DNA of 64,000 nucleotides. Origin: Planctomycetota bacterium. GTDB taxonomy: Bacteria; Planctomycetota; GCA-002687715; DRQF01. The stretch's first letter is position 1. Each line of letters begins with the position of its first letter. The DNA lies in the NCBI GenBank assembly GCA_027001995.1, contig JALTLO010000197.1, forward strand, positions 31,299 through 95,298, in the 5' to 3' direction. The notes under the pieces were generated by a model. The model saw nothing but the letters and a program-made list of their open reading frames with translations, was not told where the DNA came from and ran no database searches. This document shows, piece after piece, positions 40,667 to 59,599 of this stretch. The position numbers were made by a program, and so were the translations under genes.

Positions 40667-43537
40667 ATGAATGAGGAATCACAACACGAGAATCTGGTGC
40701 GCCAGACAGTCCGTCAGTTGAGAAATCTCTCTCTTAGAGCTGAAAGACGGGAGGTTTTGGACGTACTCCGCTTGGCAGACGAGGCGGCCTATTCTGAGGT
40801 TATGGAACTCATGCGTTTGGACCCCACTCTTCAGTTGGGCTCAGCCCACTCCCATGCTGACAATCTGAGTGATTTGACCTTTGTTGGCGAAAAGGTAGAG
40901 GATGATGGGGGCGTCGGGGTCCTTCCTGCAGCGATGCCTCAGACTCAGGTGGGGGAGTTTCGCATCATCAGGCAGATTGGTACCGGTGGCATGGGGCTGG
41001 TCTATGAAGCAGAGCAAGAAAATCCGAATCGCCGGGTTGCCCTGAAAGTGATGCGTGCGGATTTGATGAGCGAGGGTCTCCGAGAGCGATTTCAGTTCGA
41101 GGCGGAGATCTTGGGGCGCTTAGATCATCCAAATATTGCCAGAATCTTCGCCAGTGGATGGCAGGAAACAGCCGTCGGTAAGCAGCCTTGGTTCGCTATG
41201 GAATTAGTCGCAGGTTTGAGCATTCTGGCCTATGTCCAGGAAGAGAATCTGAGCTTGGAAGAGAAGGTTGCCCTATTTTTGGGGGTGATTGAAGGGGTTC
41301 ATGGGGCTCATCAAAGAGGCGTTATACATCGAGATTTGAAACCAGCGAATGTGATGGTCAATGACGAAGGCCGGGTAAAGGTCTTGGATTTCGGACTTGC
41401 CAAGCTGGCAGATTCCACGATGGATGCCATGAAGACCCAGACCGGGCAATTGGTGGGCACTCTCAACTATATGAGCCCAGAGCAGGCCGGAGGGGATTCT
41501 GATGAACTCGATGTTCGAACCGATGTCTACTCTCTCGGTTGTGTACTCTATGAACTTCTGAGTGGTGAAGTCCCGGTGGACACCCGGGGCCAAAACCTGA
41601 CCAGGTCGATTGTCGAGATTCAAGAGAAGACTCCAGTTGAACTCGGTATCATCAACCCGGCATGTCGCGGCGATCTGGCACTCATTGTGAGCAAGGCCAT
41701 CGCTAAGGACAAAGAAATGCGCTACGGATCGGCCGCCGCCTTGGGAGATGATCTCCGTCGATTCTTGGCCAATGAAGCGATCGTCGCTAGGCCTCCTTCC
41801 GCGTGGTATCAGCTCAGGAAACTGGGGCAAAGAAATCGCGTGGCGTTTCTTGCGGTTGCGGGCGTGTTAGTTGCGATCATTGTTGGGGGTGTCGTATCGT
41901 TGAAGTTTGCTGTGGAGGCGGAAGAACACGCCCGGATCGCCGAGAGCGAAAAACAGCGGGCGGAGATGGAGTCAAGGAAGCGACTCCGCTTGGCAGAAGA
42001 GGCGAGGCGAGAATCAGAAAGAGCGGAGGCTGAGGCGAAGGCTCGACTTAAGGCAACAGAAAGATCGAATCGATACTCCCAATTCATCATCGAGACGTTT
42101 GCCAATATCGATCCCAATATTGCCAGGGGAAAGGAGATTTCTCTGCGTCAGGCCATGCAGGAAGTGGAGGCAAAATTCGAAAAGAGTCTGGGCGATGATC
42201 CTGAGAGTCTAGCGCGCTTACATGGTTTTTTTGCCACTATGAGTGAAAGTCTTGGTGATCCAGAGGGGGCTCTTGATCACGCGAAGAAAGCGGCCGGCCT
42301 TCTGGAGCGTTTTCCCCAAGAGACAAGAATTCTTGCCCAAGTGGAGAAAATCTGGGCTTTGAGTTTGGCGAGGCTGGGGCATGTTGAAGAGGCGGAGTTT
42401 CATTTGAATCGGGTTGAAGAAATCCTGAAGGCTGATGGCCTGGAAGAGGGGACGATGGCAGCTACCCTCTTGGCGGACAAGGCGGAACTCTATGAGCGAA
42501 TGGGGCGCTACAAAGACGGCCTTTCTCTTGCGGATAGAGCCCTTGCTCTCCGCTTGAAGATTTTCGGGCCCGATCATGAAGATGTCATCATGAGTCGATT
42601 TATCCGAGCGTCGATCTTAACGGCTATGGAGAACTTCGACTTGGCTAAGGAAGAGGCGACTCGTTGTCTTGAATATCGTGCAGCAAACTTGCCGAGGAAT
42701 CATCCCTTGGTGGCCGAGGCGCACAATCTCATGGCCCGTATTGCGGTGGGGCGGGGAGAAATTCAGTCTTCGATTGAGCACACTCAAGCAGCCATTGCCA
42801 TCCAGAAGATTGTCTTTCCTGAAGGTGGCAGACCACTCCGAGCGAATCTCATGAACTTGGGGTTTCTTTATATGCAAGAGGGGAAGCTCGAGCTCGCCAG
42901 GGAAACTTTGAAAGCGGCATTGCACGCTTACGAGACCTCTGATGGTCAACAAGATCCAGTGGGGTTTTCCGTCTGTTACATCACTCTCTCGGATATCTAT
43001 GACCAGCAAGGGGAATTGGGATTGGCTTTGGATGCCATTTCTCAGGCGGTGGCCTTGCTTCAGTCTCACCCTGGAGTGGCCCCCATCAATTTGGCTCACG
43101 CGCTTAGTCGCAAAGGATCATACTTGTCCGCTAAGGAGTCGGAACCGCTCTACCGACAGGCTCGGGACTTGTTCAGGAAGTCGGAATCGAGGACATCGCC
43201 CAATGCCTTGACAGCGTCTCGTCACCTCACGGCTGCTCTCATGAAGCAGGAGAAGTTCATAGAATGCCGCGACCTCTTAGAGGAGTTGCGAACTGAAATT
43301 GACAGTGCCAAGAACATCCCATTTCGGGAACGCATGGCAATTCATGTCAATCTTGGACTTACCTATGACAAACTGAAAATGTTTGCCAAGGCCGAAGAGT
43401 CTCTCCTCTATATTTACCGGCTTTGCCAAGAAGCTGGCCCACCCGCAGCCAGATCTTTGGCCGCGGTGAAGAAGAACCTCTTCGATTTCTACAGACGCTT
43501 GGGCAAGAAAGAAAAAGCAGCCAATTTCAAACCCTGA
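40667..43537 (+). CDS. Membrane Ser/Thr protein kinase with TPR repeats
   Basis: IGTGGMGLVY, VALK, HRDLKPAN, DFGLAK, GTLNYMSPE, DVYSLG; TM, coiled coil, TPR units (IFGPDHED, RNHPLVA). Confidence 0.94.
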   Translation: MNEESQHENLVRQTVRQLRNLSLRAERREVLDVLRLADEAAYSEVMELMRLDPTLQLGSAHSHADNLSDLTFVGEKVEDDGGVGVLPAAMPQTQVGEFRIIRQIGTGGMGLVYEAEQENPNRRVALKVMRADLMSEGLRERFQFEAEILGRLDHPNIARIFASGWQETAVGKQPWFAMELVAGLSILAYVQEENLSLEEKVALFLGVIEGVHGAHQRGVIHRDLKPANVMVNDEGRVKVLDFGLAKLADSTMDAMKTQTGQLVGTLNYMSPEQAGGDSDELDVRTDVYSLGCVLYELLSGEVPVDTRGQNLTRSIVEIQEKTPVELGIINPACRGDLALIVSKAIAKDKEMRYGSAAALGDDLRRFLANEAIVARPPSAWYQLRKLGQRNRVAFLAVAGVLVAIIVGGVVSLKFAVEAEEHARIAESEKQRAEMESRKRLRLAEEARRESERAEAEAKARLKATERSNRYSQFIIETFANIDPNIARGKEISLRQAMQEVEAKFEKSLGDDPESLARLHGFFATMSESLGDPEGALDHAKKAAGLLERFPQETRILAQVEKIWALSLARLGHVEEAEFHLNRVEEILKADGLEEGTMAATLLADKAELYERMGRYKDGLSLADRALALRLKIFGPDHEDVIMSRFIRASILTAMENFDLAKEEATRCLEYRAANLPRNHPLVAEAHNLMARIAVGRGEIQSSIEHTQAAIAIQKIVFPEGGRPLRANLMNLGFLYMQEGKLELARETLKAALHAYETSDGQQDPVGFSVCYITLSDIYDQQGELGLALDAISQAVALLQSHPGVAPINLAHALSRKGSYLSAKESEPLYRQARDLFRKSESRTSPNALTASRHLTAALMKQEKFIECRDLLEELRTEIDSAKNIPFRERMAIHVNLGLTYDKLKMFAKAEESLLYIYRLCQEAGPPAARSLAAVKKNLFDFYRRLGKKEKAANFKP

Positions 43538-43597
43538 TCCGACGGCTTCATAAGGTTGCGGTTCCCAGTTAGCGAATTTTCTGGGCAAGATCACAGC

Positions 43598-46024
43598 TCA
43601 TATCGTTTTTTCCCGTTGGGGCAAGGTGCGGATCATGAGGAAGGGAATGATGAGGATGACTGCGCCTACCACATAGGGGCTTGCATAGCTGAATCGCCAA
43701 TAGAGGAGTCCCCCCAGGACAGGACCAACAGTTCGCCCCAAAGCACCGATAGAGCGATAGACACCGATGATCCGACCTTGCTCGTGTTCCGGAGCATAGA
43801 AGGAAACCAAGGACGTGAGACAAGGGATGACCATGGCAGAACCGGTGGCCATGAGGCTAAGCCCGACATAGAGCAAAAAGACGCTTCCCAAGTTGCCGGC
43901 CATGGCAATCAAAATGAGCCCAGGGATGAGAATCTTGAGCCCCTTTTGGGTGACGACTGATTCACCGATCAATGCTGCCTTTCGTCTGACGTAACCTCCT
44001 TGTACCATCGATAGGACGACACCAATGAACACGAAAAGCATGCCGTTTTCTGCCGCGCTGTAGTCCAGCTTTTCGAACGTCAAGAAGGTCAGCATGTTTT
44101 CGGCGGCACCAAAAGCCGAAAGGAAAATGAAATTGACCCAAACGACGGCAGATACCCCAGGATAGCTTTCCATGTGGAAGAGCTTGATGGGGTTGATGGT
44201 GCGATAGAGTTTACCTTTGCCTCGTTTCTCGGGAGGAAGAGTCTCTGGGAATTTTCTCAGGACGAAAACAAAGTTCCAGACGCAAAGGAGAAAAGCGATC
44301 AGAGCCGGAGCAGAGAAGGGGTTGATACCCCAATCGGAGCCTCCACTGAGCCACTGGTGAAGAGGAATAAATGCGGCGCTAAGTCCGCCAATTGCCGGCC
44401 CCAAGATGAATCCGAGACCAAAGGCAATGCCAATGATGGCCATACCTTTGGAGCGAGTTTGCTCGGTGGTGGTATCAGAAACCGCTGCAGTGGCTGTTGT
44501 GATATTGCTGCCCATGAGACCGGAGAGCAAACGTGAAATGACGAGCAGCAAGAAGCTGCCAGAAAACACCCAAATCAAATAGGCCACAGCATTGCCGAGA
44601 ATCGAGAAGAGCAAGATGGGGCGGCGACCGACGCGGTCGGACACAGCTCCAAAGACTGGAGCCATGGCGAATTGAAGAAAGGAGTAGAGGAAGACTAAGA
44701 GTCCGCCGAATAGGGCCATAGTGGCTTTTGGGTTGTCTGAACCTCCGGTGATGCCCCGAATTCCTTCCATGAGGGCACCGAACAGACCGGTCTCACCTTC
44801 TATGGCATTGTAGTAGTTGAGCATCTCTGGGAAGAGGGGAAACATGATGGAGAAACCGATGAGATCGATGAACAAAGTCAGGAACATCGTTTTCAGAACA
44901 CTTCGGTCTTTGGGTGAAAGGGCTCCGTCAGGATACTTGTCTAACCCAAGGTAGGGGCATGTCTCGCATTGCTTGGGGGCGTGGCAACACCCCTGTTCGG
45001 GAACTTCAATGGGACAAGCACGGGGAATCGGGAGTTCTGGGGAAGTAGGTGTTGCTGAAGTAGACTCATCCTGAGGTAACATGACATCTTTGGCAAAGTC
45101 CTGTGCCCAATCCTCATCGTCATTGAGGCATCTCACCACATGGAACTCGCTCCCACCATGTCTCAAGAATATCTCTCTCAGGCCGATACCTACCTCTTCT
45201 TGGGTTTCTAAATTGTCGACCACGAATGCTGGGCAAACCACGGTGATTTTCTTGACCCCATTTTGGGCCATCTGGATGATTGTCTCTTCCGTACTTGGTG
45301 CTAACCAAGGTTCCCGACCGAATCTTGACTGGAAGGTGAGGTGAGTGTGTTTCGGATTGTGCTTGGTTCCCTGTGCTAAGAGGGTGGCGGTTTCGACGCA
45401 TTGATCGAAGTAGGGGTCGCCTCCTCGGATGCGGCGGATGGGATAGCCATGAAAAGAGAAGAGCAATTCTTCAGGAGGATCCGCTTCGAGGCTCTCGTTG
45501 ATCTTCTGGACTGTGTTGTTGATATAGGCCGGACTCTTGTGGAAGTTCTCGACAAAGGTGATCTCCATTGGCCCTATTTCTCTCAGCGCCTTGTCGAGGG
45601 CATCTCTGCAAGAAAGTGTGGTGGCTTCGCAAAACTGAGGAAACATGGGAATCACCCGGACATGCTCGCAACCCCTGTCCTTTAGTTCTCTCAGTTGTGA
45701 GGTGACGGAAGGGGGGCTGAGAATGTAGGAGAAGGCTAGTTCTATTTGCGTTCCATCAATGTGGGTTTGAAGCTTCTCAACAAATGATTCCGTAAACTGA
45801 AACAGCGGAAAGGTGGAGCCAGTCCAAATGCTTCTGTAGGCCGCGGCCGATTTGGGGGAGCGAGAAGGGAGGATGAAGAGGTTCAGCACCAGTTTCCACA
45901 CCAAATCTTGTTTGTCGACCACACGGGGGTCGCCAAGAAATTCTCGGAGGTATTCCTTCACATCGCTGACTTGGGGGCTTTTGGGAGAGCCCAATTGAAT
46001 CAAGAGAATACCGAGTTTCTTCAT
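43598..46024 (-). CDS. hemH: Ferrochelatase fused to DHA1/TetA-like MFS transporter
   Basis: N-half LGSPKSP, FLGDPRVV, FSFHGYP, FQSRFGREPWL, DNLETQEE; Cys-rich linker; C-half MFS motif A GAVSDRVGRRP and motif C GFILGPAIGG, about 12 TM; one uninterrupted 808-aa frame. Confidence 0.88.
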   Translation of the reverse strand: MKKLGILLIQLGSPKSPQVSDVKEYLREFLGDPRVVDKQDLVWKLVLNLFILPSRSPKSAAAYRSIWTGSTFPLFQFTESFVEKLQTHIDGTQIELAFSYILSPPSVTSQLRELKDRGCEHVRVIPMFPQFCEATTLSCRDALDKALREIGPMEITFVENFHKSPAYINNTVQKINESLEADPPEELLFSFHGYPIRRIRGGDPYFDQCVETATLLAQGTKHNPKHTHLTFQSRFGREPWLAPSTEETIIQMAQNGVKKITVVCPAFVVDNLETQEEVGIGLREIFLRHGGSEFHVVRCLNDDEDWAQDFAKDVMLPQDESTSATPTSPELPIPRACPIEVPEQGCCHAPKQCETCPYLGLDKYPDGALSPKDRSVLKTMFLTLFIDLIGFSIMFPLFPEMLNYYNAIEGETGLFGALMEGIRGITGGSDNPKATMALFGGLLVFLYSFLQFAMAPVFGAVSDRVGRRPILLFSILGNAVAYLIWVFSGSFLLLVISRLLSGLMGSNITTATAAVSDTTTEQTRSKGMAIIGIAFGLGFILGPAIGGLSAAFIPLHQWLSGGSDWGINPFSAPALIAFLLCVWNFVFVLRKFPETLPPEKRGKGKLYRTINPIKLFHMESYPGVSAVVWVNFIFLSAFGAAENMLTFLTFEKLDYSAAENGMLFVFIGVVLSMVQGGYVRRKAALIGESVVTQKGLKILIPGLILIAMAGNLGSVFLLYVGLSLMATGSAMVIPCLTSLVSFYAPEHEQGRIIGVYRSIGALGRTVGPVLGGLLYWRFSYASPYVVGAVILIIPFLMIRTLPQREKTI

Positions 46025-46105
46025 GTCGCACTCTTATGGTTGTATCTAGTCGCGGGATCTCTTGAAAGGAATCGCTTCCCAGGAATTGAAGAGACATGGG
46101 CACTA

Positions 46106-46525
46106 TCACTTAGAATCACAGGACTTGTTGGTGAGTCCATCCAAGCGCGCATTTGTTAAATGGCCTTTTATCAACTCTTGAAGTTGAACGAAGACCTGTG
46201 TCACCGCACAACCCCCACTGGCAGGACAATTGCCTTCGACTTGAGTCTCACAGACGTTCATGGCCAGAGGACCTTCGAGAGCTTCAAGAATTTGGAGGAG
46301 GTCAATTTCCTTGGCTGGACGTCCCAGAGAATAACCACGCTTGGCTCCTCGATGGGCTTGAACAATACCAAAGCGGGTCAGGGACTGAAGGATGTTTGAT
46401 AAGTAGTTGGCTGGGGCCCCAATTCCTTCAGCGATATCCACCAGAACGACGGGGCAATGCTCACTTTGCTCCGCTAAGAAGACAGTGGCACGAATGGCGT
46501 ATTCCGTGCCGCGATTGATCTGCAT
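46106..46525 (-). CDS. Rrf2 family Fe-S transcriptional regulator (NsrR/IscR-like)
   Basis: TEYAIRA, YLSNILQSL, RGAKRGYSL, ILEALEG, three Cys (C..C.....C) in the C-terminal part. Confidence 0.92.
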   Translation of the reverse strand: MQINRGTEYAIRATVFLAEQSEHCPVVLVDIAEGIGAPANYLSNILQSLTRFGIVQAHRGAKRGYSLGRPAKEIDLLQILEALEGPLAMNVCETQVEGNCPASGGCAVTQVFVQLQELIKGHLTNARLDGLTNKSCDSK

Positions 46526-46604
46526 GGGTAATTCCTTTCAGTCCCAACCTGACCCTGAGGTCTTCTCATTCATTTTGTTGGCAAATCTCTGACTTTCAAG
46601 ATAT

Positions 46605-46633
46605 AGTCACTCAACTCACTCACTTGAGTGACT
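46605..46633. promoter_or_regulatory. Perfect inverted repeat, probable Rrf2 operator in the divergent promoter
   Basis: AGTCACTCAA-N9-TTGAGTGACT between the divergent rrf2 and nod-like starts. Confidence 0.65.
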
Positions 46634-46672
46634 TTGACAACTTGATCCTTCCTAAACCCTCGGAGTTAGCTC

Positions 46673-49060
46673 ATGAACCTCATGTCGTGGATAGACAAAC
46701 GTCAGCAATGGTGGAAGGTCTTTGTCATCATCTTCACCATCAGCATCAGTGTCGTGGGATATATTGGTTATCAGACTTACGAATATGCTCCCCCTCTCGC
46801 TGATTTCCGCTCCGACACCGGTGAGCTTGTTTTTTCTGGCAAAGCCATCACGGATGGTCAACAAATCTTTCTGCGTTATGGGCTTATGGACTATGGAACT
46901 TTCTTAGGCGACGGAGCACTTCGGGGCCCAGATTTCACGGCGGAGGCTCTTAATCGCGCAGCCAAGGCGATGAACAAGTTTCATGAGGCTGAGTGGTTGG
47001 AGAAGATGCCTGACGAGGAGAATCGAAAGGTCATTGTTCAATCACTTGTGCAGGCTGAGATCAAAGAAAACCGCTACGACGAAGTCAGCAACACAGTGAC
47101 TCTGACGAAGGCTCAGGTTGCGGCCTGGGAGGACTTGCTTCAATTTAATACTGAGAGGTTTGCCGAGGGCGGTCCTTTGGCGGGCAAGGAAGCCTTTAAG
47201 CCGGAAAACTACATCACTGACCCACAAGAAATCGCGGATCTCACGGCTTTCTTCTTTTGGGGTGGGTGGCTCTGCGGGGCGGAGCGGCCAGGCTTTGACT
47301 ACAGCTATACCCAGAATTGGCCTTTTGATCCTCTTGCTGGCAACGCTCCCGCTGCGGGGGTGATGTTCTGGAGCGTGATTGGCGGGTTGGTATTGATTCT
47401 ATCCATGGGGCTTGTGTTCTACTTGTACGGCAAGCTCGATCGGGAATCTGTTTTTGAAGCTCAAGAATCCAAGACGCCACCGATGACAACAATCGAGGAC
47501 ATCGATCGGGCGCGCCCGACGCAGACACAACGAGCATGCTACAAATTTATGGCCGTAGCTTCGCTCTTGTTCTTGGTGCAAATTCTCGCGGGACTCATGG
47601 CCATCTCAGATTTCGTCGGGCTCTTCGACAACATCGGTATTGATCTGACGGCCATTTTTCCTGTGACAGTGACCCGGGCATGGCATTCTCAAATTTCTGT
47701 TCTTTGGATTGCTGTTTGTTGGTTTGCTGCTTCTATTTGGGTGTTGCCCCTCATTTGCCGGCCTGAACCCAAGAATCAGTTGGCATGGATTAACGGCTTG
47801 TTTTGGATGCTTGTGATTGTGGCTTTGGGAACTGCCATTGGGATTCCCTTGGGTGTTCACGGCTTTTTCGGTGACATGTGGCGTTGGTTCGGGAATCAAG
47901 GCTGGGAGTTCATGCAGTTGGGTAGAGTGTTTCAATACTTGCTCTACGCCGCTTTTGTCGTCTGGTTTGTCATTGTCTATCGCGGACTGTGGCCAGTGCT
48001 ACGAAGACGAGAAAGTTGGTCTTTGCCGAATTGGATGATCTACTCCATTGCGGGTATCATCTTCATGTTTACTGCTGGCTTCGTGGCGAATACGGATACG
48101 AATTTTGTCATCGCCGATTTTTGGCGTTGGTGCACAATCCACATGTGGGTGGAAGCATTCTTTGAGCTATTTACCACCGTCCTTTTGGCTTACTTCCTCT
48201 ACATCATGGGCTTCGTCAGTCACATGGTGGCGGCACGGGTCGTGTATCTCTCAGCGATCCTCTTCCTTGGTTCGGGTCTCATTGGTATTAGCCACAACTT
48301 CTACTGGAATGCGAAATCTGTTGAGACATTGGCCTTGGGTGGTGTGCTCTCGACCTTGCAAATTACTCCACTTGTGTTGTTGACTGTGGAAGCGTGGAAG
48401 TTCAGGCACATGCCTCAAAGTCGTATCGCGCAAATGAAGAAGAAGAGCGGCAAGGATGCGATCTTTGGGCTTGGGGACGCATTTCTTTTCTTGGTTGGTG
48501 TGAACTTCTGGAATTTCATGGGTGCCGGTGTCCTTGGGTTCATGATCAATTTGCCAATCGTAAATTACTACCAACATGCTACCTACCTCACGGTCAATCA
48601 TGGGCATGCAGCACTCTTTGGTGTTTATGGCAACTTGGCGATTGCATCCATGTTGTTTTGTGGCAGATGGGTCATCAAGCCAGAGAAATGGAATGGACGT
48701 CTGGTGAGGCGCGCATTCTGGTGGCTCAATCTCGGTTTGGTTCTGATGCTTATTATGGACTTGTTCCCAGTTGGCGTTCATCAACTTTGGACTGTGATGG
48801 ATGAAGGCTATGCTTTCGCCCGATCCCAAGATTACATTCATGGCGAGATGTTTCAGCGGTTCACATGGCTGAGAGGTTTTGGCGTGGCCGCCTTTACCTT
48901 TGGCGGAGTCTTGCCCTTGGTGTGGTTCATGGTGACACGGTGGTTCCATTTGAAACCAAGAAGCGAAATCGAAGTGGAACCCTTTGTGGTACCGCCCACT
49001 GTCTTGGCTGTTATGCCTGGGACCAAAGGGGACAAGAATGGGGAGGAACCGGGAGTTTAG
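46673..49060 (+). CDS. nod: qNOR-family nitric oxide reductase homolog with NO dismutase (Nod)-type substitutions
   Basis: qNOR motifs GDGALRGPDFTA, YTQNWPFD, RAWH338, H490MWVE494, NH643GH645; but SH541N542 instead of HH, STLQ563 instead of SALE, quinol-site His/Asp absent. Confidence 0.85.
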   Translation: MNLMSWIDKRQQWWKVFVIIFTISISVVGYIGYQTYEYAPPLADFRSDTGELVFSGKAITDGQQIFLRYGLMDYGTFLGDGALRGPDFTAEALNRAAKAMNKFHEAEWLEKMPDEENRKVIVQSLVQAEIKENRYDEVSNTVTLTKAQVAAWEDLLQFNTERFAEGGPLAGKEAFKPENYITDPQEIADLTAFFFWGGWLCGAERPGFDYSYTQNWPFDPLAGNAPAAGVMFWSVIGGLVLILSMGLVFYLYGKLDRESVFEAQESKTPPMTTIEDIDRARPTQTQRACYKFMAVASLLFLVQILAGLMAISDFVGLFDNIGIDLTAIFPVTVTRAWHSQISVLWIAVCWFAASIWVLPLICRPEPKNQLAWINGLFWMLVIVALGTAIGIPLGVHGFFGDMWRWFGNQGWEFMQLGRVFQYLLYAAFVVWFVIVYRGLWPVLRRRESWSLPNWMIYSIAGIIFMFTAGFVANTDTNFVIADFWRWCTIHMWVEAFFELFTTVLLAYFLYIMGFVSHMVAARVVYLSAILFLGSGLIGISHNFYWNAKSVETLALGGVLSTLQITPLVLLTVEAWKFRHMPQSRIAQMKKKSGKDAIFGLGDAFLFLVGVNFWNFMGAGVLGFMINLPIVNYYQHATYLTVNHGHAALFGVYGNLAIASMLFCGRWVIKPEKWNGRLVRRAFWWLNLGLVLMLIMDLFPVGVHQLWTVMDEGYAFARSQDYIHGEMFQRFTWLRGFGVAAFTFGGVLPLVWFMVTRWFHLKPRSEIEVEPFVVPPTVLAVMPGTKGDKNGEEPGV

Positions 49061-49345
49061 CCCGACTCACCTCAGAGACTTTGGTGCCCCAGCCATGTGG
49101 CCAGGAATTCGGATTGGATGTGGTAAGTGCAAAATACTGCCATGATGTGTCTACTTTTGGATACTCTTGATCTCCGAATTAGGCCACTCGATTGTGCCTG
49201 ACTTTTTACTATTTGTGTCGTTAACCTGTTAAATATCAGTATGTTATGGGTTGTGTTTGATGTTGGCATGGCGTGTGCGAAGGGAAAGGGGATGACAAAA
49301 AGCTGTCGTCGCAATAGTTCCGTTTCTCTCGAAAGGAGACGTTCC

Positions 49346-49729
49346 ATGACGATCAAGACATTCCTCAGCACCGCAGCCTTCGCATTACTTCTCACGGCGC
49401 TTTCCACTCCAGCCAGCGCCCAGAGCTTTGGTGCCAGTTTTGGAGGTCATGACGGTGGATTCAGTATCAGCATCGGGGGCCACGGAGGAGGCTACTACAA
49501 TAGCTACGGTGGGAACTACGGCGGAAGTCATGGCTATTCCTGGAACCGAGGTCACAATTCCTATTCCGGCGGCCACAATTCCTACTATCGCCCCAGCTAC
49601 AACCGCCACTATTCGAGTCGTCCAAGCCACCGCAGGAGTTATCGTTCGCGAAGTCACAGTCGTTCAACGTATCGGCCTCGCCACGGATCCTACCGATCGT
49701 CGTACAATCGTCACGGTCGCAGACACTGA
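49346..49729 (+). CDS. Small secreted Gly/His/Tyr/Arg-rich low-complexity protein
   Basis: AGGAG RBS, signal peptide ending ASA-Q, GHNSY repeats, Arg/Ser/His-rich tail. Confidence 0.78.
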   Translation: MTIKTFLSTAAFALLLTALSTPASAQSFGASFGGHDGGFSISIGGHGGGYYNSYGGNYGGSHGYSWNRGHNSYSGGHNSYYRPSYNRHYSSRPSHRRSYRSRSHSRSTYRPRHGSYRSSYNRHGRRH

Positions 49730-49784
49730 TCTGACCTCAGCCGACTTTCTCTCATTGTAGATTTGGTCCGTGCGCTCAGAAACC

Positions 49785-49827
49785 AAAGCCTCCTTGCACC
49801 TATAATCTTAGGTCAAGGAGGCTTTTC
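49785..49827 (+). terminator. Intrinsic terminator
   Basis: AAAGCCTCCTTG..ACCTA-taatct-TAGGT..CAAGGAGGCTTT-T downstream of 49729. Confidence 0.75.
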
Positions 49828-49956
49828 TCGTGCCAAAGTGGATGAGCCCATTGCGCCTACCGAACATGTCGAGTCTTCTTTTTTCCTAGGGCCAATAAAC
49901 TTGAGAATAGGTGTATCATTCATCTGGTCTGTGACTTCGTTGAGATTGGAGACGAG

Positions 49957-51276
49957 ATGTTTGATGAAACACGGAGGCGATTCGTTGCCGCTTTAGGAAT
50001 GTTTGGGGTGGCCTCTGCGAGTTCCGGAAATCCTCTTTCAGGAGTATCCGGCTCAACCCAAGAAGAGCAGGAAGAAAAACGCAAGAAGAAACAGAAAATG
50101 AAGGGGATGAAGAGTGGCCAGGAACATGGCAAGTCCATGGACACCATGATGAATCCTCTCGAAGATCGTTTTCCGCGCAATGATCCAACAATTGCTCTTT
50201 CGAAGCCGCCCAAGCTTATGGGGCGTCAAATGGGCCGGATCGAGACTCCCGGGATTGAACCACTTGGATTCGAGATGGATGGTTCGGTGAAGGTATTTCA
50301 TCTTATTGCACAACCGGTGGAGAAAGTGATTTCGAGTGGGATGTCTATGTCTCAGGTCGATCAGCGGATGAACATCCCCAAGCCGTTTCAGCGTTTTCGC
50401 CCAAGACCAAGCCAACCGAAGAAAATGGTTTGCTGGGGTTACAACGGAACCACTTGCGGGCCAACTTTGGAGGCGACGGAAGGCGAGCGCGTTCGTATTG
50501 TGTTCAAGAACGAATTGCCAGAACCAACATCGATTCACTGGCACGGGTTTGAAATTCCATTCTCTGAAGATGGTGCCTCGGGATATTTCCCCTTTGAGGC
50601 CCGACGTCCGGTCTTGCCTGGGGAGACAGATGTCTATGAGTTTGACCTCATCCAATCGGGAACGCTCATGTATCACACTGGCTTCAATGTCATGAAGCAG
50701 GAGGGGATGGGAGTCTCTGGCATGTTCGTGATTCACCCGAAGAAGGAAGAGCAACCCCCTGACCATGATTTTGCCATCATGTTGCAGCAGTGGAGCTTTC
50801 GTCCAGGAAATCCGAATCCCGATGTTGTTCCCATGGAGCCGACCTTTGCCACTTTCAATGGTCTCACCGCACCTGATATCCCCATGCTGGAAGTTAAGCA
50901 AGGGGATCGGGTTCGCATTCGATTCGGAAACCTCAGCCTCCTGTATCACCCGATCCACATTCACGGTCACATTTTTGAAATCGTTGGGACCATTGGCGGT
51001 TCGATTCCAAGAGCAGCCCGAATGAGAGAAGCGACGGTCACCATTGGACCAGGAGAGACTCGGGATATCGAATTCGTCGCCTGGAATCCTGGGACCTGGA
51101 GAATGCACTGTCATGTCTTGCATCATCTGATGAACCAGATGGCCGATCAACCTATGGGAATCGCTCCTCCCGAAGGCATGTTCACTCACATGAATGTGCG
51201 TCCCAAAGACCCTGGCTATGATCCAAAAGACCGAAAAGCCAACTGGAGCTATCCACCAAAGGAAGAGAGGATCTAA
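49957..51276 (+). CDS. Two-domain multicopper oxidase-family protein (Tat-exported)
   Basis: TRRRF Tat motif, Met-rich N-terminus, IHWHG, MYHTG, HPIHIHGH, WRMHCHVLHH..M. Confidence 0.9.
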   Translation: MFDETRRRFVAALGMFGVASASSGNPLSGVSGSTQEEQEEKRKKKQKMKGMKSGQEHGKSMDTMMNPLEDRFPRNDPTIALSKPPKLMGRQMGRIETPGIEPLGFEMDGSVKVFHLIAQPVEKVISSGMSMSQVDQRMNIPKPFQRFRPRPSQPKKMVCWGYNGTTCGPTLEATEGERVRIVFKNELPEPTSIHWHGFEIPFSEDGASGYFPFEARRPVLPGETDVYEFDLIQSGTLMYHTGFNVMKQEGMGVSGMFVIHPKKEEQPPDHDFAIMLQQWSFRPGNPNPDVVPMEPTFATFNGLTAPDIPMLEVKQGDRVRIRFGNLSLLYHPIHIHGHIFEIVGTIGGSIPRAARMREATVTIGPGETRDIEFVAWNPGTWRMHCHVLHHLMNQMADQPMGIAPPEGMFTHMNVRPKDPGYDPKDRKANWSYPPKEERI

Positions 51277-51278
51277 CA

Positions 51279-52637
51279 GTGAAGAATCTCAGTTGTTTGA
51301 TTTTGCTCGTCCTGTCCGGGTGCGTGGCCGTCGATCCCGCGCCATCATGGCGTCGTGTTCATGAGCTAAGCGAAGAGCGTATTGACGCCGACACTGTTTG
51401 GATTCGCTCGGACGATGAAGCTCAATTGGTTGAGCAAACCGTTGAGGCGATGTTGAAGGATGGTCTGACCCGGGACGAGAGTCTACGAATAGCAGTCCTT
51501 AAGAACCTTCGACTGCAAGCTCGCTTTAACGATCTCGGCGTGGCCACGGCGGCTGTTGTTGAAGCATCGTTACCAACGAACCCAACACTTGATGGTTGGT
51601 TAGGTCTTCCCGGGCGGTCCGGTGCGAGTTCTTTAGGGTTGGTCGCTTGGCTATCCGACCTTTGGATCATTCCTCAACGAAGCGCCGTTGCTGAACTCAT
51701 GGCACAACGTACAGAATACGTTGTCACGATTGACATCATGAACACGGCGATCCGTGGAGCCTCCTCGTGGGATCGTCTTGTGGCAGCGCAACAAGCATTA
51801 GGCATGACTCAGGAGCTGCTACAGGTGCGTCGAGATCATGCTCAACGGGTTGCCATACGTTTTGCTCATGGGCTTGATGATTCTGCTACCTTAGATGAGG
51901 CTAAAGCTATGGTGGCGGAAGAACAGGTTGCCTTGCAAAAGGCGAAGCAGGATCTGACCCAGGCCCGGACCAATATGTCGGCGATCCTGGCAACTCCTGA
52001 AGTTTGGCGACATGTCCCTTCAAACGCCTCCCTCTCTCCAACTCCGTCTCCAAAAATGCAAGTGAGCGATTCGATCGAATTCGGCATGTCCAACAGGTTG
52101 GACTTGCTTGCTGGGCGGGTAGAGGTCGAGCAAGCGACGCGAGCCGTCGGTTTGGAAGATGCCCTTATCTGGCGATCTGTTTCTCTTGGTACTAACAAGG
52201 AAGGGCAATTCTCTCGGGTCTACGACTCGAATGTTGAGGCTGACGAGTCATTTGGGCCGACGATTTCTATTGAGATACCCATTTTCAATCAGAATCAGGC
52301 TGGGCGAGCTGCTGCATCATTCGAGCTTCAACGGGCAATCAAACTGCTTGATGCGGCTCGGGTGCGGGCAACAAAGGAAATTGTAGATTCTTTTCAGCGC
52401 TATGAAAACTCGAATGAGAGTTTGCGAAATCTGGAAGAAATTGCTCGACCTGCCATTGTGTCTCGGCTCAAGTACATGGAAGAGTGGAACCTGAAAATGC
52501 AGGTGCCATTTCTGGAGGTGCTCGCCGCCCGCGAAAAACTCATAGCTGTAGATATGGAAATCAATATGGTGCGCGAAGAAAGAAACAACAGTTGGCGGGA
52601 GCTTGAGTTCGCAACCAAGGGCGGTGAAAAGCGGTAG
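51279..52637 (+). CDS. TolC-family outer membrane lipoprotein (copper-resistance associated)
   Basis: GTG start, LSG-C lipobox, AVLKNLRLQA, LPTNPTL, IEIPIFNQNQ. Confidence 0.85.
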   Translation: MKNLSCLILLVLSGCVAVDPAPSWRRVHELSEERIDADTVWIRSDDEAQLVEQTVEAMLKDGLTRDESLRIAVLKNLRLQARFNDLGVATAAVVEASLPTNPTLDGWLGLPGRSGASSLGLVAWLSDLWIIPQRSAVAELMAQRTEYVVTIDIMNTAIRGASSWDRLVAAQQALGMTQELLQVRRDHAQRVAIRFAHGLDDSATLDEAKAMVAEEQVALQKAKQDLTQARTNMSAILATPEVWRHVPSNASLSPTPSPKMQVSDSIEFGMSNRLDLLAGRVEVEQATRAVGLEDALIWRSVSLGTNKEGQFSRVYDSNVEADESFGPTISIEIPIFNQNQAGRAAASFELQRAIKLLDAARVRATKEIVDSFQRYENSNESLRNLEEIARPAIVSRLKYMEEWNLKMQVPFLEVLAAREKLIAVDMEINMVREERNNSWRELEFATKGGEKR

Positions 52638-52809
52638 CCAAGGAAAGGCCACCTTCCCCTCCCCGCAGGGCTTCAACTCTATTATTTTCGAGTTGTTCCC
52701 CCGTGGAGATTCACTTCTCTCAATAAGATGCGAATATTTTACCGCCCTCTGTCGTTGGAGTGATGAAGGCAATGCCCTTACAAGTTCTGAAACTCTCAAG
52801 GAAGTTCTG

Positions 52810-53709
<900 letters not shown>

Positions 53710-53714
53710 TCCCC

Positions 53715-55487
53715 ATGTCGAACCGCGTCGCACTCGTCTGTGGTTTTCTGTTCATGCTCGTCGTCACGTCTTCTTGTTTTGGACAAGTGAGTCCAGAGGA
53801 GCATAAGAAGCATCACCCGAAGCAAAATGCTCAAAATGCTGATAGCTCTGAATCTCCGACCAAATCCGGGGGTATGATGGGCGGAGGCGGCATGGGTGGC
53901 ATGATGAAGAAAATGGGGGTGCCACCCCCTAAGGATCTCTATCCTTCGTTGATGGCCATTCGCCATCTGAGCGAAAAGGAACGCAAGAGCTTGGAGTCTG
54001 AAGCTCACGAGCGCATGCGGACCGGTGCTAATCTCTTAGGTCTTGGTTTGAGCGATTTGTCCCGCCTAGCGGCAAGCGATGATTTTCAGAGTATGGAAAA
54101 GGCCGTGGGCGTCATGAAGGAAGGCGTAGCTGAATTCGAAAGTGGCTTGGCAACTCACCGGGCTCTGGTGGAAGGGAAAGTTCCCTCCAAGGTCGCCCTG
54201 CGCTGGTTCAAGGATGAGATGAACTTGGCTACAGTCTCTTCTTCTCCTGATTCGGACGGCCTCTTCGGGTTGAGTTATTTTCATCTGTTTATGATGTCCC
54301 TTCTTACGCTTTTTGCCGTGGCGATGATCGGCATGTACTTCTCTAAGATGAAGAGAGCGAACGAACTTCTATCGCGGTTGTCCAAGGTCCCGGTTCCTCC
54401 TGCTCGAACAGATTCGGAAGAAGGGATGAAGCCGAAATCTCAATCGAGTCAGCCAGTCGCTTGGCCAGAAGAACTCACTGTTGTTGAGAAATTCGACGAA
54501 ACGAAATCGGTGTCAACCTTTCGCCTGGCGGACCACCGCAACTCTTGTCTTGTGTTGCCATTTCTCGCAGGGCAGTTCTTGACTATCGAAGTTGAGATCG
54601 ACGGCAAGAAAGTGCGTCGGAGCTATACCATCTCTTCTTCTCCATCGCGGCCCTATGTAGAGTTGACAGTCAAAAGGGAAGAGCATGGATTGGTCTCCGC
54701 CTATCTCCATAAGACATGGAAGCCGGGGGAGAAAATTCGCGTTTTGCCAGCGAGTGGGCAGTTTACATTCGATAGCGAAAAACATGACAGTATCGTTCTT
54801 GTGTCTGGAGGAGTTGGCGCAACGCCGATGATGAGTGTGGCTCGAGACCTCACAGAGAGATCGTGGACCGGAGAAATCTTTTATGTTCATTGCGCCAAAA
54901 ATCTGGATGACTTGATTTTTCGAGATGAGCTAGAGCAGATGGCTGCACGATTCTCGAATTTTCACTTAATCATCACTTTGACCGGCGAAACTCGTAAGAA
55001 GTGGAAGGGGCGGAAAGGTCGGTTCTCGGCTGAGATGTTCACCGAAGCGATTCCCGACCTTGTCAGTCGACAGGTGCACATCTGCGGGCCGAATCCGATG
55101 ATGGACGCGGTCTCTCAGCTACTCGATGATCTCAAGGTTCCGAAGGATCAGGTCCACAAAGAAGCATTTGGCGCTCCTAAGAAGAAGCAAGAAAAAGAAC
55201 CGAAGGTTTCTGGAAAAGCGAGTGCCGATCCCCGCGTTGAATTTGCTGCCTCGAAAAAGAGCGGCACGATGAAAGGGCATGAAACGGTTTTGGATCTTGC
55301 CGACGCCATTGGCGTTGAGATCGAGAATTCTTGCCGAACTGGAATTTGTGGCGCTTGCAGTGTGAAACTTGTCGCCGGTGAAGTCACCATGGAAGTTGAT
55401 GATGCTTTGTCTGAGGAAGACAAAACTGCTGGCATCATTCTCGCTTGCCAATCTCAACCTAGAACGGATCTGAAAGTCGATGCCTAA
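53715..55487 (+). CDS. Membrane-anchored FAD/NAD(P)H ferredoxin reductase + 2Fe-2S ferredoxin, with His/Met-rich exported N-terminal domain
   Basis: Signal peptide, EEHKKHHP, GGMMGG, one TM, RRSYTISS, GLVSAYL, GGVGATP, CGP, CRTGICGAC..LAC. Confidence 0.88.
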   Translation: MSNRVALVCGFLFMLVVTSSCFGQVSPEEHKKHHPKQNAQNADSSESPTKSGGMMGGGGMGGMMKKMGVPPPKDLYPSLMAIRHLSEKERKSLESEAHERMRTGANLLGLGLSDLSRLAASDDFQSMEKAVGVMKEGVAEFESGLATHRALVEGKVPSKVALRWFKDEMNLATVSSSPDSDGLFGLSYFHLFMMSLLTLFAVAMIGMYFSKMKRANELLSRLSKVPVPPARTDSEEGMKPKSQSSQPVAWPEELTVVEKFDETKSVSTFRLADHRNSCLVLPFLAGQFLTIEVEIDGKKVRRSYTISSSPSRPYVELTVKREEHGLVSAYLHKTWKPGEKIRVLPASGQFTFDSEKHDSIVLVSGGVGATPMMSVARDLTERSWTGEIFYVHCAKNLDDLIFRDELEQMAARFSNFHLIITLTGETRKKWKGRKGRFSAEMFTEAIPDLVSRQVHICGPNPMMDAVSQLLDDLKVPKDQVHKEAFGAPKKKQEKEPKVSGKASADPRVEFAASKKSGTMKGHETVLDLADAIGVEIENSCRTGICGACSVKLVAGEVTMEVDDALSEEDKTAGIILACQSQPRTDLKVDA

Positions 55488-56253
55488 GGATCTAAAGGAA
55501 AGAGAGCGCCTCGTTGTTACCGGCCTCACCGTCATTTTTCTCATCTTGTGGTTGGGTTTCGTTTTTCACCAATCACCGAGATTCGCTGGGAGCCTCCTGG
55601 GGAGTCTCATCGGCATAGTTGGATCCTTGTTGATGCTTGTGCCTCTTGCGTATGTGGCCATCAAGAGAATCAAACGCTTGAAAAAGTTCGTCACTGCCAA
55701 ATTCTCGATGCGTACACTTCTGGCATGGCACATCTATAGTGGGATCTTAGGACCTATTCTGGTCTTGATTCACACGGGGCACAAATTCGAGAGTACTCTT
55801 GGTAGCCTTCTGACTCTGATGACAATTGTTGTGGTGGTGAGTGGTTTCGTTGGGCGCTATCTGATGCGGCAATTGAGCCAAGGTATCAAAGAGAAGAAAA
55901 GCAAACGGAGTGAACTCGAGGCCGCATATGCTGCCAAGGCTCAAACTCTCAGTGCAAGAGGGAGCAGCTCAGGTCGCAGTATTGCGGGGATCTCTAAGTT
56001 TCGCTTTCGGCTAGTGAGTTGGTTCTTTGACAAGGACGATGTTTTGGATCCTGAATTGAGAGCCACTGTTGAGGCCGTTCAAATCTCGGATGCTCTGGCT
56101 GACGTTGAGTATGCTCTGAAGAGTCATGAGATCATCAAAGCCTTCTTTTCTCGGTGGTTGAAGTTTCACATCGCCTTAAGTTTGCTTCTCTATGGATTGT
56201 TAGCTCTTCATGTGGCCAGTGGTTTCTATTTTGGGATGAGGTGGTTGCAATGA
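55480..56253 (+). CDS. Ferric-reductase-like integral membrane protein (putative di-heme b)
   Basis: Several TM helices; two His pairs spaced 14 apart (HIYSGILGPILVLIH, HIALSLLLYGLLALH); overlaps both neighbours. Confidence 0.72.
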   Translation: MPKDLKERERLVVTGLTVIFLILWLGFVFHQSPRFAGSLLGSLIGIVGSLLMLVPLAYVAIKRIKRLKKFVTAKFSMRTLLAWHIYSGILGPILVLIHTGHKFESTLGSLLTLMTIVVVVSGFVGRYLMRQLSQGIKEKKSKRSELEAAYAAKAQTLSARGSSSGRSIAGISKFRFRLVSWFFDKDDVLDPELRATVEAVQISDALADVEYALKSHEIIKAFFSRWLKFHIALSLLLYGLLALHVASGFYFGMRWLQ

Positions 56254-57041: not shown

Positions 57042-57150
57042 ATGGACCACATGCTTCGGGGCTGAAGGCAAAAAGCTTGGCGTCTCGAATATAAGATGGG
57101 CACCTGTGCAGGTCTGTTCCTTCAGAATCGTTTCATTAAGGGCTTGAGCT

Positions 57151-59460: not shown

Positions 59461-59599
59461 CCTGCTGGGGCGTCCATGTAAGTTGGGCACAAACAAACAG
59501 TATTCTGTGCTGTCTATGTTAGATTCGCTGGAAGCAGAGGTCGCGCCAGTTGGACGGGACAAGCAGGTTCTGATGGATGAGTGAGGACGACAATTGACC

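Follow-up and report, generated by a model that had tools for sequence, protein, structure and literature searches.

An Rrf2/Nod-type gene pair, likely NO-responsive, next to a ferrochelatase-MFS fusion in a Planctomycetota genome

Repressors of the NsrR type are Rrf2 proteins that adjoin NO-detoxifying genes (norB, hmp), and NsrR and IscR share the cysteine spacing C-X5-C-X5-C. Nod-type enzymes require two b hemes, and some ferrochelatases carry a 2Fe-2S cluster held by a C-terminal cysteine cluster. Oxygen-poor waters and sediments are rich in Nod-type genes. The published proposal for Nod is the dismutation of NO to N2 and O2, and N2O formation is also argued in the pertinent passages of PMC5723336. 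As described in Ettwig 2012 (PMC3413370) and bioRxiv 10.1101/2023.11.21.568154, the 'Planctomycetia-type Nod' and the Nod of Ca. Methylomirabilis oxyfera fold like a qNOR, with an N-terminal domain that lacks heme c, no quinol site, Asn in place of one FeB histidine, Gln in place of a catalytic-site Glu and intact heme ligands; the protein studied here is alike in all of these points. The passages on gene neighbourhoods in the same preprint place the Planctomycetia-type Nod in oxygen-deficient zones and report Rrf2-type regulators next to the Alpha-type and Bacteroidota nod genes. For the Planctomycetia-type they describe a patchy distribution and no fixed neighbourhood, which agrees with our observations, and no related neighbours, whereas an rrf2 gene adjoins the Nod-type gene in the window and in one sister genome. 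Published surveys have given no meaningful neighbours for planctomycete-type nod, and the present locus pairs one with a predicted repressor and operator.

We analysed a stretch of 64,000 nucleotides (the window) from a 5.2-Mb planctomycete assembly that is 92% complete (G000). Two sister genomes, G001 from the same genus and G002, served for comparison. Table 1 gives the features of the locus. The open reading frames, their strands, the 147-bp spacer and the perfect palindrome described in the first-pass annotation were all confirmed at their coordinates. The annotation had combined the three genes into a self-contained NO-inducible module. We prefer a different reading, with a probability of roughly 0.6: a two-gene Rrf2/Nod cassette in which Rrf2 likely sits on the palindrome and would be released by NO, and an adjoining fusion that is probably an ordinary, laterally acquired ferrochelatase.

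Table 1. Coordinates of genes, domains and predicted control elements at the Rrf2/Nod locus (positions in the window)
Feature	Position	Strand	Details
hemH-MFS (ferrochelatase-MFS fusion)	43598..46024	(-)	808 aa; TIGR00109 hemH + Pfam
MFS domain aa 380-763, MFSD10/TETRAN-like	43736..44887	(-)	Pfam MFS_1; 6S4M
Cys-rich linker (Cys337, 346, 347, 353, 356)	44954..45016	(-)	C346, C347, C353 and C356 invariant in the 15 closest fusions
Ferrochelatase domain aa 3-311	45092..46018	(-)	catalytic His192, Glu273
Gap, rrf2 stop to hemH-MFS start	46025..46105	(-)	81 bp
rrf2 (Rrf2-family regulator)	46106..46525	(-)	139 aa; Pfam Rrf2; Cys92, Cys100, Cys106, Glu8
Divergent control region rrf2/Nod	46526..46672	.	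147 bp; central block 46570-46635 conserved versus G001
Predicted rrf2 promoter TTGAAA-16-CAAAAT	46572..46599	(-)	9/12 consensus matches; conserved in G001
Predicted sigma-70-like Nod promoter TTGGCA-18-TATAGT	46578..46607	(+)	10/12 consensus matches; conserved in G001
Perfect 10-9-10 palindrome AGTCACTCAA-N9-TTGAGTGACT, predicted Rrf2 operator	46605..46633	.	29 bp, inverted-repeat search
Nod-type (putative NO dismutase-type) qNOR homologue	46673..49060	(+)	795 aa; Pfam NorB_cytochrome_c-like + COX1

Residue signature of the Nod-type protein

The Nod-type protein consists of a NorB cytochrome c-like domain (PF22085, aa 45-217, E 2e-45) and a COX1 domain (PF00115, aa 289-737, E 7e-45), and its closest solved relative is the qNOR of G. 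stearothermophilus (3AYF, E 3e-143). It has the same length and domains as 3AYF and the genome's own qNOR on contig C22 and shares ∼31-36% identity with the canonical copies in the phylum; unlike in these, substitutions affect the quinol-binding residues and two residues of the catalytic site. In the numbering of the G. stearothermophilus enzyme, H328, E332, F336 and D746 read S, G, N and V. The FeB ligand H560 is replaced by N (SHNFYW compared to GHHYYY in qNOR), and Q563 of the Nod-type protein aligns with E581 of 3AYF, which amounts to a Glu to Gln exchange near the catalytic centre (the passage in the source paper numbers no residue for this exchange and the mapping to E581 is ours). H508, E512, E516 and H559 as well as the HGH heme ligands are retained. 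The translation contains no CXXCH motif, so the N-terminal cytochrome c-like domain is without heme c. Neither the quinol site nor the FeB site of three His and one Glu that mark a qNOR was found in the window protein, and the true qNOR of this genome is the copy on C22.

The same pattern was observed across the family. The window protein and 27/27 homologues checked (43-86% identity) all have H560N and E581Q and lack E332 and D746. Position 560 is N in all 28 Nod-type sequences, the window's own included, versus H in 3/3 canonical qNORs, and every qNOR residue is kept in the three homologues of 31-36% identity, among them the second copy on C22. By the published residue signature of putative NO dismutases, for which we took the criteria from the relevant passages of Ettwig 2012 (PMC3413370) and PMC10286720, the window protein is Nod-type. 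The Nod-like identity given in the first-pass annotation is borne out by H560N, the Glu to Gln exchange and the lost quinol site. The reference Nod of M. oxyfera was absent from the best 120 matches of our homologue search. Nod-type proteins make up 1688 clusters.

The protein could also be an NO reductase with another electron donor that forms N2O, its adjacency to the other two genes having no regulatory meaning. Fuchsman 2017 (PMC5723336) argues that many nod-like qnorB genes follow N2O and are found in bacteria that do not dismutate NO, and in 2/20 loci a 92-aa 4Fe-4S ferredoxin is encoded directly 3' of the Nod-type gene. We consider this very unlikely, as all 27 homologues lack the quinol site and carry a substitution of one FeB histidine, and no donor gene is linked to the Nod-type gene in the window. 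The next ORF after it encodes 162 aa of low complexity; we rejected it as a Nod partner on account of this composition and since it has no homologue in the fetched loci or the rest of the genome.

We also looked for a source of NO. The multicopper oxidase at 49957-51276 was rejected as NirK, since it scored 42.5 bits for the ORF itself and 25 bits when the whole genome was searched, compared to a cut-off of 296.3, and our searches detected neither NirK or NirS nor another recognised NO source. NO would therefore come from outside and detoxification would be the role of the cassette, with the Nod-type enzyme presumably removing the NO. No Rfam family was detected in 43000-50000 at E values of up to 0.1.

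The Rrf2 regulator and the divergent control region

The 139-aa ORF matches Pfam Rrf2 with an E value of 2.2e-28. In NCBIfam the rrf2_super model passes its cut-off, and the IscR, RirA and NsrR equivalogs all stay far below theirs, with scores of 69.9 for IscR, 61.9 for RirA and 47.6 for NsrR (NF008240, cut-off 182). The protein is about equally far from the RsrR, IscR and NsrR structures, RsrR and IscR being its best solved relatives. The cysteines C92, C100 and C106 are present with the spacing C-X7-C-X5-C, and Glu8 and Cys92 align with the ligands Glu8 and Cys90 of RsrR. The protein is a three-cysteine regulator with a predicted iron-sulfur cluster, and it is likely NO-responsive. It resembles the NsrR-type repressors as a small Rrf2 protein with three C-terminal cysteines, encoded divergently with a palindrome over the predicted -10 of its target. 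It differs from them in the cysteine spacing and in its score on the NsrR equivalog, it appears to be local and single-site, and its predicted 10-9-10 operator is unlike the NsrR box. In the reading of the first-pass annotation, the divergent pairing of the Nod-type gene with a three-cysteine Rrf2 over the palindrome is supported.

The two arms of the palindrome, AGTCACTCAA and TTGAGTGACT, are 10 nt long, 100% complementary and 9 nt apart. At up to 3 mismatches we found one site in the window compared to no match in 100 shuffles, and with up to 4 mismatches there is no further site in the 5.2-Mb assembly. The predicted -10 of the Nod promoter overlaps the palindrome, and the predicted rrf2 promoter lies face to face with the Nod promoter. 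These promoter positions are putative, as the scan total was not above chance with 3 found and 3.9 expected. The spacer block 46570-46635, in which the palindrome and the two predicted promoters lie, hardly differs between the window and G001, whereas its flanks have diverged; the palindrome itself is retained in G001 with a single right-arm change. Related loci totalling 450 kb contain five palindrome-like sites with up to 4 mismatches, all with the 9-nt spacing, versus ∼0.2 expected by chance at this spacing by our estimate. Genome G073 has one such site 90 nt upstream of its Nod-type gene and another one directly upstream of its Rrf2 orthologue.

The gene pair recurs in G001, where the Rrf2 orthologue (76% identical) is again divergent from a Nod-type gene (86% identical). 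The homology between the two genomes ends at the two gene ends, and the context of the cassette in G001 is different: hemH-MFS is missing, and what follows rrf2 is an ORF of 361 aa in convergent orientation and a gene for an ECF sigma factor. The kinase flank, the Rrf2/Nod cassette and the copper block are each found in different contexts in G001 and G002. We also located six Rrf2 orthologues in other planctomycetes (47-67% identity), none of which adjoins a Nod-type gene, so that the pairing occurs in a single genus within the set of genomes searched. Taken from the sequences, rrf2 and the Nod-type gene are likely a two-gene, NO-responsive cassette.

The scores below the NsrR cut-off and the comparable closeness to RsrR and IscR mean that the signal could be redox or iron instead of NO. 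The regulator would then sense Fe-S status, iron or redox in the manner of IscR, RirA or RsrR and tune the Nod-type and ferrochelatase genes to the cofactor supply. The higher scores on the IscR and RirA models (all below cut-off), the solved relatives and the aligned Glu8 and Cys92 would fit such a sensor. However, in the sister genome rrf2 is accompanied by the NO enzyme gene and by no other, the operator occurs once in the genome, a poor fit to a global iron regulon, and the Rrf2-type regulators beside the nod genes of other lineages are read as NsrR-like in the passages of bioRxiv 10.1101/2023.11.21.568154 devoted to them. Overall we regard an iron or redox signal as unlikely.

For the NO-responsive cassette we propose the following course. 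Without NO, Rrf2 would likely bind the palindrome over the predicted -10 of the Nod promoter and keep the gene off. NO would then meet the predicted iron-sulfur cluster of Rrf2, the palindrome would be released and the Nod-type gene would be switched on. Both the repression by Rrf2 and the role of NO as the signal are what we infer from this arrangement. Palindrome and Rrf2 together offer a handle on the inducing signal of a Nod-type enzyme that is independent of the host.

The adjoining ferrochelatase-MFS fusion

The first-pass annotation had described the third gene as a ferrochelatase-MFS fusion, and we found both domains in one frame: Ferrochelatase at aa 3-311 (E 9.7e-88) and MFS_1 at aa 380-763 (E 2.6e-47), with TIGR00109 hemH at 251.9 bits compared to a cut-off of 124.6. 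This architecture is widespread and occurs in 1128 protein clusters; the closest homologues of the window's fusion are 69-74% identical to it. As in protoporphyrin ferrochelatases (PpfC/HemH) the canonical motifs SFHG and DNLET and the catalytic His and Glu are present, and 26 fusion proteins all have His192 and Glu273. The ferrochelatase half matches the human protoporphyrin ferrochelatase with E 3e-19 over aa 3-293, and the B. subtilis-type enzymes are more distant (E 3e-15, aa 69-274). Unlike PpfC/HemH, the enzyme is fused to a 12-helix MFS protein whose closest solved relative is human MFSD10 (6S4M, E 3e-57). The cysteine cluster between the two halves resembles the C-terminal one of 2Fe-2S ferrochelatases, and this linker, which is missing from the Bacteriovoracia branch of fusions, may bind a 2Fe-2S cluster. 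Our full-text literature search did not return the ferrochelatase-MFS architecture. In the 2026 heme review (PMC13564367) the only ferrochelatase fusion named is HemH-HemQ of C. acnes, and the term 'major facilitator' does not appear.

The position of the fusion behind rrf2 is not likely to be an artefact. A second assembly made from the probable source run has a contig that spans 45204-46516 and bridges the hemH-MFS/rrf2 junction, which argues against a join made at binning or scaffolding. Near-identical pieces of all three genes were also present in a run from a second study, and the arrangement is therefore stable in that population. In the 81-bp gap at 46025-46105 we detected no promoter-like or terminator-like site, and a comparison with the upstream regions of two orthologues of 65-67% identity gave no shared motif and nothing conserved. 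As the two genes are co-oriented, 81 bp apart and without a predicted terminator between them, read-through from rrf2 into hemH-MFS and thus shared control are possible.

This arrangement speaks for the three-gene module, in which NO would free Rrf2 and thereby induce the Nod-type gene and, by way of the rrf2 transcript, a dedicated ferrochelatase-transporter for the supply or handling of the heme b used in assembling the enzyme. The real junction, the need of a Nod-type enzyme for two b hemes, whose ligands are kept, and a linker that could hold an NO-sensitive 2Fe-2S cluster are consistent with it. The comparative data speak against it. We found no Rrf2 or Nod/qNOR gene near the fusion in any of 67 other fused loci within the flanks fetched (59 loci, one further locus (L013), two more and five Lentisphaeraceae loci of 67-68% identity), and no hemH or MFS gene near the Nod-type gene in 27 other loci. 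In the same genus the cassette exists without hemH-MFS. A metagenome scan with the fusion (P0001) alone gave no relative, and a scan with an alignment of 15 sequences gave only two close loci, both cut by contig ends. The three genes were thus not found together elsewhere. From the module as originally proposed, the Rrf2/Nod pair and its operator block recur in G001, and hemH-MFS probably does not belong to this unit.

Another indication that the fusion is no dedicated component is its probable role in the cell. No other ferrochelatase in the 92% complete assembly has the catalytic histidine, and in 4/4 other genomes tested the fusion is the sole PF00762 match. The heme operon of G000 does encode a HemH-like protein, with LAPD in place of SFHG, and the same was observed in 5/5 orthologues in relatives; this histidine-less protein might be active by another route. 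For the standalone canonical hemH of G001 and G002 we found no counterpart in G000 besides the fusion, though with 92% completeness such a gene could sit in the missing part. An only canonical ferrochelatase must serve all heme proteins of the cell and cannot be off whenever NO is absent. The fusion probably serves as the housekeeping ferrochelatase. Two of three findings that the first-pass annotation had itself named beforehand as speaking against its module were made here: the trio was not found elsewhere, and the assembly has no canonical ferrochelatase besides this hemH. A three-gene system is not supported, likely there is none, and we judge a common NO-inducible module of all three genes to be quite unlikely. 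This negative result matters, as it shows the idea of a dedicated heme supply to rest on adjacency without conservation.

The origin of the fusion was studied with a quick tree. A 7-row clade with an SH-aLRT of 99 unites the window protein with a Lentisphaeraceae cluster and Lentisphaera profundi, and the three other Planctomycetota fusions in the tree fall elsewhere. We rejected the notion that the fusion occupies the ancestral hemH site, as G001 and G002 have their standalone hemH genes in loci without flanks in common with the window. Judging by the tree, the fusion was probably acquired laterally, and hemH-MFS is probably an ordinary heme-forming enzyme and no dedicated part of the cassette. 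There is a slim chance that this sole canonical ferrochelatase, a lateral MFSD10-like fusion with possibly an Fe-S linker, has been captured behind the Fe-S-sensing rrf2, such that NO would tune heme b formation or porphyrin traffic; if so, this would be a newly assembled regulatory link from NO defence to heme supply.

Two by-products of the analysis are of interest beyond this locus. One is the widespread fusion of ferrochelatase and MFS, on which several lineages depend as their sole ferrochelatase, and the other is the HemH-like protein without the catalytic histidine that is encoded in planctomycete heme operons.

The divergent gene pair and its control region

The first-pass annotation had placed three open reading frames, a spacer and a palindrome in this part of the window, and ORF calling, Pfam and an inverted-repeat search returned all of them at exactly the same coordinates. 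G000, the window's own assembly, has a size of 5.2 Mb and a completeness of 92%, and the runs containing the window's DNA are labelled hydrothermal vent metagenome. The probable source run has a second assembly, in which a single contig covers 45204-46516 and bridges the hemH-MFS/rrf2 junction, which argues against a join made at binning or scaffolding.

Features of the window and of related loci (C, contigs of G000; L, fetched loci; others, window positions)
Feature	Position	Strand	Details
hemH-MFS fusion ORF (P0001)	43598-46024	-	808 aa; ferrochelatase aa 3-311 and MFS_1 aa 380-763, both full, one frame (Pfam)
rrf2 (P0002)	46106-46525	-	139 aa; Rrf2 domain (Pfam)
Predicted sigma-70-like promoter, rrf2	TTGAAA 46599-46594, 16 nt, CAAAAT 46577-46572	-	consensus scan
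Predicted sigma-70-like promoter, Nod-type gene	TTGGCA 46578-46583, 18 nt, TATAGT 46602-46607	+	consensus scan
Perfect 10-nt inverted repeat, 9-nt gap	46605-46633		inverted-repeat search of spacer
Nod-type gene (P0003)	46673-49060	+	795 aa; NorB cytochrome c-like and COX1 domains (Pfam)
162-aa ORF	49241-49729		low-complexity body
Metal island	49957-61786		probably copper
Second, canonical qNOR	C22:19578-21776
HemH-like operon protein	C193, L016:8001-8969	-	orthologues in L190-L194
XRE-type HTH regulators, 144 aa	L006:10483-10917; L007:10453-10887		G003, G007
Sigma-54 activator	L163:8428-10065		G326

The palindrome lies in the 147-bp spacer between rrf2 and the Nod-type gene. No such site occurred in 100 shuffles of the window, and the 5.2-Mb assembly holds no second one at up to 4 mismatches. 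In G001, a genome of the same genus, the block at ~46570-46635 is nearly identical and the palindrome differs at a single position, in its right arm; the spacer flanks have diverged on both sides. A variant strain from a second study shows 10 listed differences at 46496-46557; this comparison adds little because two more differences in its contig have no located position. Repressor sites are usually placed over the -10 element, and the palindrome starts within the -10 element of the predicted Nod promoter. As the promoter scan found 3 sites and 3.9 were expected by chance, both promoter predictions are to be taken as leads only.

The regulator exceeded the cut-off for the Rrf2 superfamily model only; the IscR, RirA, SUF-regulator and NsrR equivalogs scored far below theirs. 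Its three cysteines (Cys92, Cys100 and Cys106) and its Rrf2 structural relatives make an Fe-S cluster plausible. The protein is roughly equidistant from the structures of RsrR, IscR and NsrR, so that iron or redox might be sensed instead of NO. Only gene context suggests NO as the signal, and we consider the iron or redox alternative unlikely.

Residue signature of the Nod-type enzyme

The best solved relative of P0003 is the qNOR of G. stearothermophilus (3AYF, E 3e-143), which we used for residue numbering. Putative NO dismutases (Nod) are defined, in the part of the source available, by loss of the quinol site, one FeB His replaced by Asn and a catalytic-site Glu replaced by Gln (Ettwig 2012, PMC3413370), and the signature positions given in excerpts of a later paper are H328, E332, F336, H508, E512, H559 and H560 (PMC10286720). 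Aligned to 3AYF, P0003 carries S, G, N and V at H328, E332, F336 and D746, respectively, and retains H508, E512, E516, H559 and the HGH heme ligands. H560 is replaced by N and a Q is aligned with E581, where equating the unnumbered Glu of the literature with E581 is our own mapping. The Nod-like identity proposed in the first-pass annotation was thus borne out, and by its sequence the qNOR-like gene of the window is Nod-type.

The same residue pattern was present in 27/27 homologues of 43-86% identity from 24 other Planctomycetota genomes; all qNOR residues were retained in 3/3 homologues of 31-36% identity, including a second copy in G000. This canonical qNOR has complete quinol-site and FeB residues and is 31-32% identical to P0003. 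Nod-type genes were found in 25 of the 401 sampled Planctomycetota genomes. Of 1688 database relatives, the best 120 share 61-99% identity with P0003, and those among them that are named belong to Planctomycetes, Verrucomicrobia and Ca. Scalindua.

A "Planctomycetia-type Nod" has already been published in a preprint, whose available portions describe the neighbourhood of these genes as lacking conservation and nod genes as moving laterally (bioRxiv 10.1101/2023.11.21.568154). The chemistry of the family, NO dismutation or N2O formation, is described as disputed in the accessible text of PMC5723336. One could therefore argue that the Nod-type protein is not a dismutase and that its adjacency to rrf2 has no regulatory meaning; given the residue signature we regard this as very unlikely.

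Downstream of the gene lies a 162-aa ORF, signal-like at its start and rich in Gly, Ser, Tyr, His and Arg over its low-complexity body, for which no homologue was found in any fetched locus or in the rest of the genome. It is followed by the metal island, which encodes a two-domain multicopper oxidase, an outer-membrane efflux protein, an LTXXQ/metal-resistance protein, two P-type ATPases, an MtrC-like multiheme cytochrome and a FAD/NAD/2Fe-2S reductase whose 250-aa N-terminus is unassigned.

The cassette and its parts in other genomes

In G001 a Nod-type gene (86%) and an Rrf2 gene (76%) diverge as in the window, and the DNA homology between the two genomes comprises exactly these two genes and their spacer. 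Where the window has hemH-MFS, G001 has a convergent 361-aa ORF and then an ECF sigma gene after rrf2. On the side of the Nod-type gene away from the spacer, the G001 sequence matches another G000 contig (C115). In G001 and in G002, also of the same genus, the window's ECF-sigma (and kinase) flank runs on into genes found on G000 contig C106, and the copper block again has other neighbours in G001. Because these flanking blocks have differing contexts in the two genomes, we consider 43.5-50 kb of the window a patchwork.

Outside G000 the sampled genomes gave 28 Nod-type places, of which 27 were fetched; the one left out is a 1.8-kb contig fragment of G270. Using tblastn (E ≤1e-5 for 7 loci, ≤1e-2 for 20) we found neither a ferrochelatase nor a related MFS gene within the fetched flanks of any of the 27. 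Only the G001 locus had a divergent Rrf2 gene; at L172 an Rrf2 gene lies 2 kb from the Nod-type gene with an alginate-export gene between them. Orthologues of the regulator in other planctomycetes (47-67% identity) had unrelated neighbours in 6/6 cases, and in G021 and G073 the Rrf2 orthologue and the Nod-type gene are both present at separate places. The three genes had been proposed as one self-contained NO-inducible module coupling heme synthesis to the Nod-like enzyme. With a cassette in G001 that lacks hemH-MFS, such a three-gene system is not supported and we rate it as quite unlikely.

Palindrome-like sites with up to 4 mismatches occurred 5 times in 450 kb of related loci, all with the 9-nt spacing, for which we estimated a chance expectation of ~0.2. 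One is the predicted operator of G001 itself. Two are in G073, 90 nt upstream of the Nod-type gene (L162:5930) and directly upstream of the unlinked Rrf2 orthologue (L185:5514). In G021, AGTCAC-N8-GTGACT is found upstream of the Nod-type gene, ~180 nt from its start (L003). These sites hint at a regulon that may be kept in trans where the two genes are unlinked.

As an overall reading we favour an NO-responsive Rrf2/Nod cassette next to a housekeeping fusion, with a probability of roughly 60%. Holo-Rrf2 would bind the palindrome and block the Nod promoter, NO would harm the cluster and lift repression, and the derepressed Nod-type enzyme would then remove NO. The NO is probably external because neither NirK nor NirS was found in G000. 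The fusion would be expressed for general heme synthesis, either by read-through from the rrf2 promoter or through a start within the 81-bp gap that went unrecognised. That NsrR controls norB and hmp is textbook knowledge. Rrf2-type regulators beside nod have been described, in the preprint text available, for alphaproteobacterial and Bacteroidota nod (bioRxiv 10.1101/2023.11.21.568154), and the window shares this pairing. New here are a defined predicted operator and a planctomycete-type Nod gene as the target.

Other neighbours were surveyed with Pfam on 35 chosen ORFs at the first 7 Nod-type loci and on 48/78 ORFs at the other 20. They include an XRE-type HTH regulator in two genomes and, in a third, a GAF-domain sigma-54 activator of NorR-like architecture. 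DUF1800 and/or DUF1501 genes lie directly upstream and co-oriented at 8/20 planctomycete loci (L164, L165, L166, L169, L170, L171, L172 and L174), with both genes in 5, and in L165 and L166 a gene for a 92-aa 4Fe-4S ferredoxin closely follows the Nod-type gene. It is possible that these are real partners of Nod-type enzymes.

The ferrochelatase-MFS fusion and heme synthesis

Seen from the fusion, the trio was likewise not found together elsewhere. Neither Rrf2 nor a Nod/qNOR relative lay beside the fusion at any of the 59 out of 80 genome loci that carry it, at the locus of planctomycete G027 (0/1), at two metagenome loci of 65-67% identity (0/2) or at five Lentisphaeraceae loci of 67-68% identity (0/5).

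A second PF00762 match in G000, within an operon hemE - hemH-like - hemY - ccsB-like - hemA - hemC - hemD, raised the possibility that the fusion is an accessory ferrochelatase. We no longer favour this, as the operon protein lacks the catalytic histidine: in an alignment with human ferrochelatase and the fusion, LAPD replaces SFHG and D replaces the catalytic Glu. It scored 111 against the hemH equivalog cut-off of 124.6, and the histidine is also missing in 5/5 orthologues from related planctomycetes. Relatives with the histidine-less protein, including G001 and G002, additionally own a standalone canonical hemH, which has no counterpart in G000 besides the fusion. The fusion is therefore the only ferrochelatase with the catalytic histidine in G000, where neither ChdC nor HemF was found, and it is the only ferrochelatase match in 4/4 other genomes tested (a Halobacteriovorax, a Bacteriovoracaceae chromosome, a Lentisphaera MAG and G027). 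On the simplest reading it is the working ferrochelatase of the cell, with 8% of the genome missing and some activity conceivable for the histidine-less protein. For the latter, a role as pseudo-enzyme or porphyrin carrier is possible, as is chelatase activity at a relocated active site.

The ferrochelatase half matches human FECH over aa 3-293 (E 3e-19) and B. subtilis-type ferrochelatases over aa 69-274 only (E 3e-15), and so resembles the protoporphyrin type. Among solved structures, human MFSD10 is nearest to the MFS half (E 3e-57). The linker has four cysteines that are invariant in the Lentisphaera-like branch, and it is missing from the Bacteriovoracia branch. The family comprises 1128 clusters, with both domains in all of the best 120. 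A full-text literature search did not find this architecture; in its available text, a 2026 review of heme biosynthesis names no fusion other than HemH-HemQ and does not contain the term "major facilitator" (PMC13564367).

Of the named matches listed, those closest to the fusion come from a Lentisphaeraceae cluster (68%) and from Lentisphaera profundi (66%), and 8/8 Lentisphaeraceae genomes carry the fusion. A quick maximum-likelihood tree placed P0001 in a 7-row clade with Lentisphaeraceae relatives (SH-aLRT 99) and three other Planctomycetota fusions far from it. We infer that the fusion was acquired laterally and displaced a standalone hemH. Besides the window gene, loci L017-L096 and L205-L209 were surveyed for this family, and in Opitutia and Hydrogenedentota genes related to the MFS half also stand alone.
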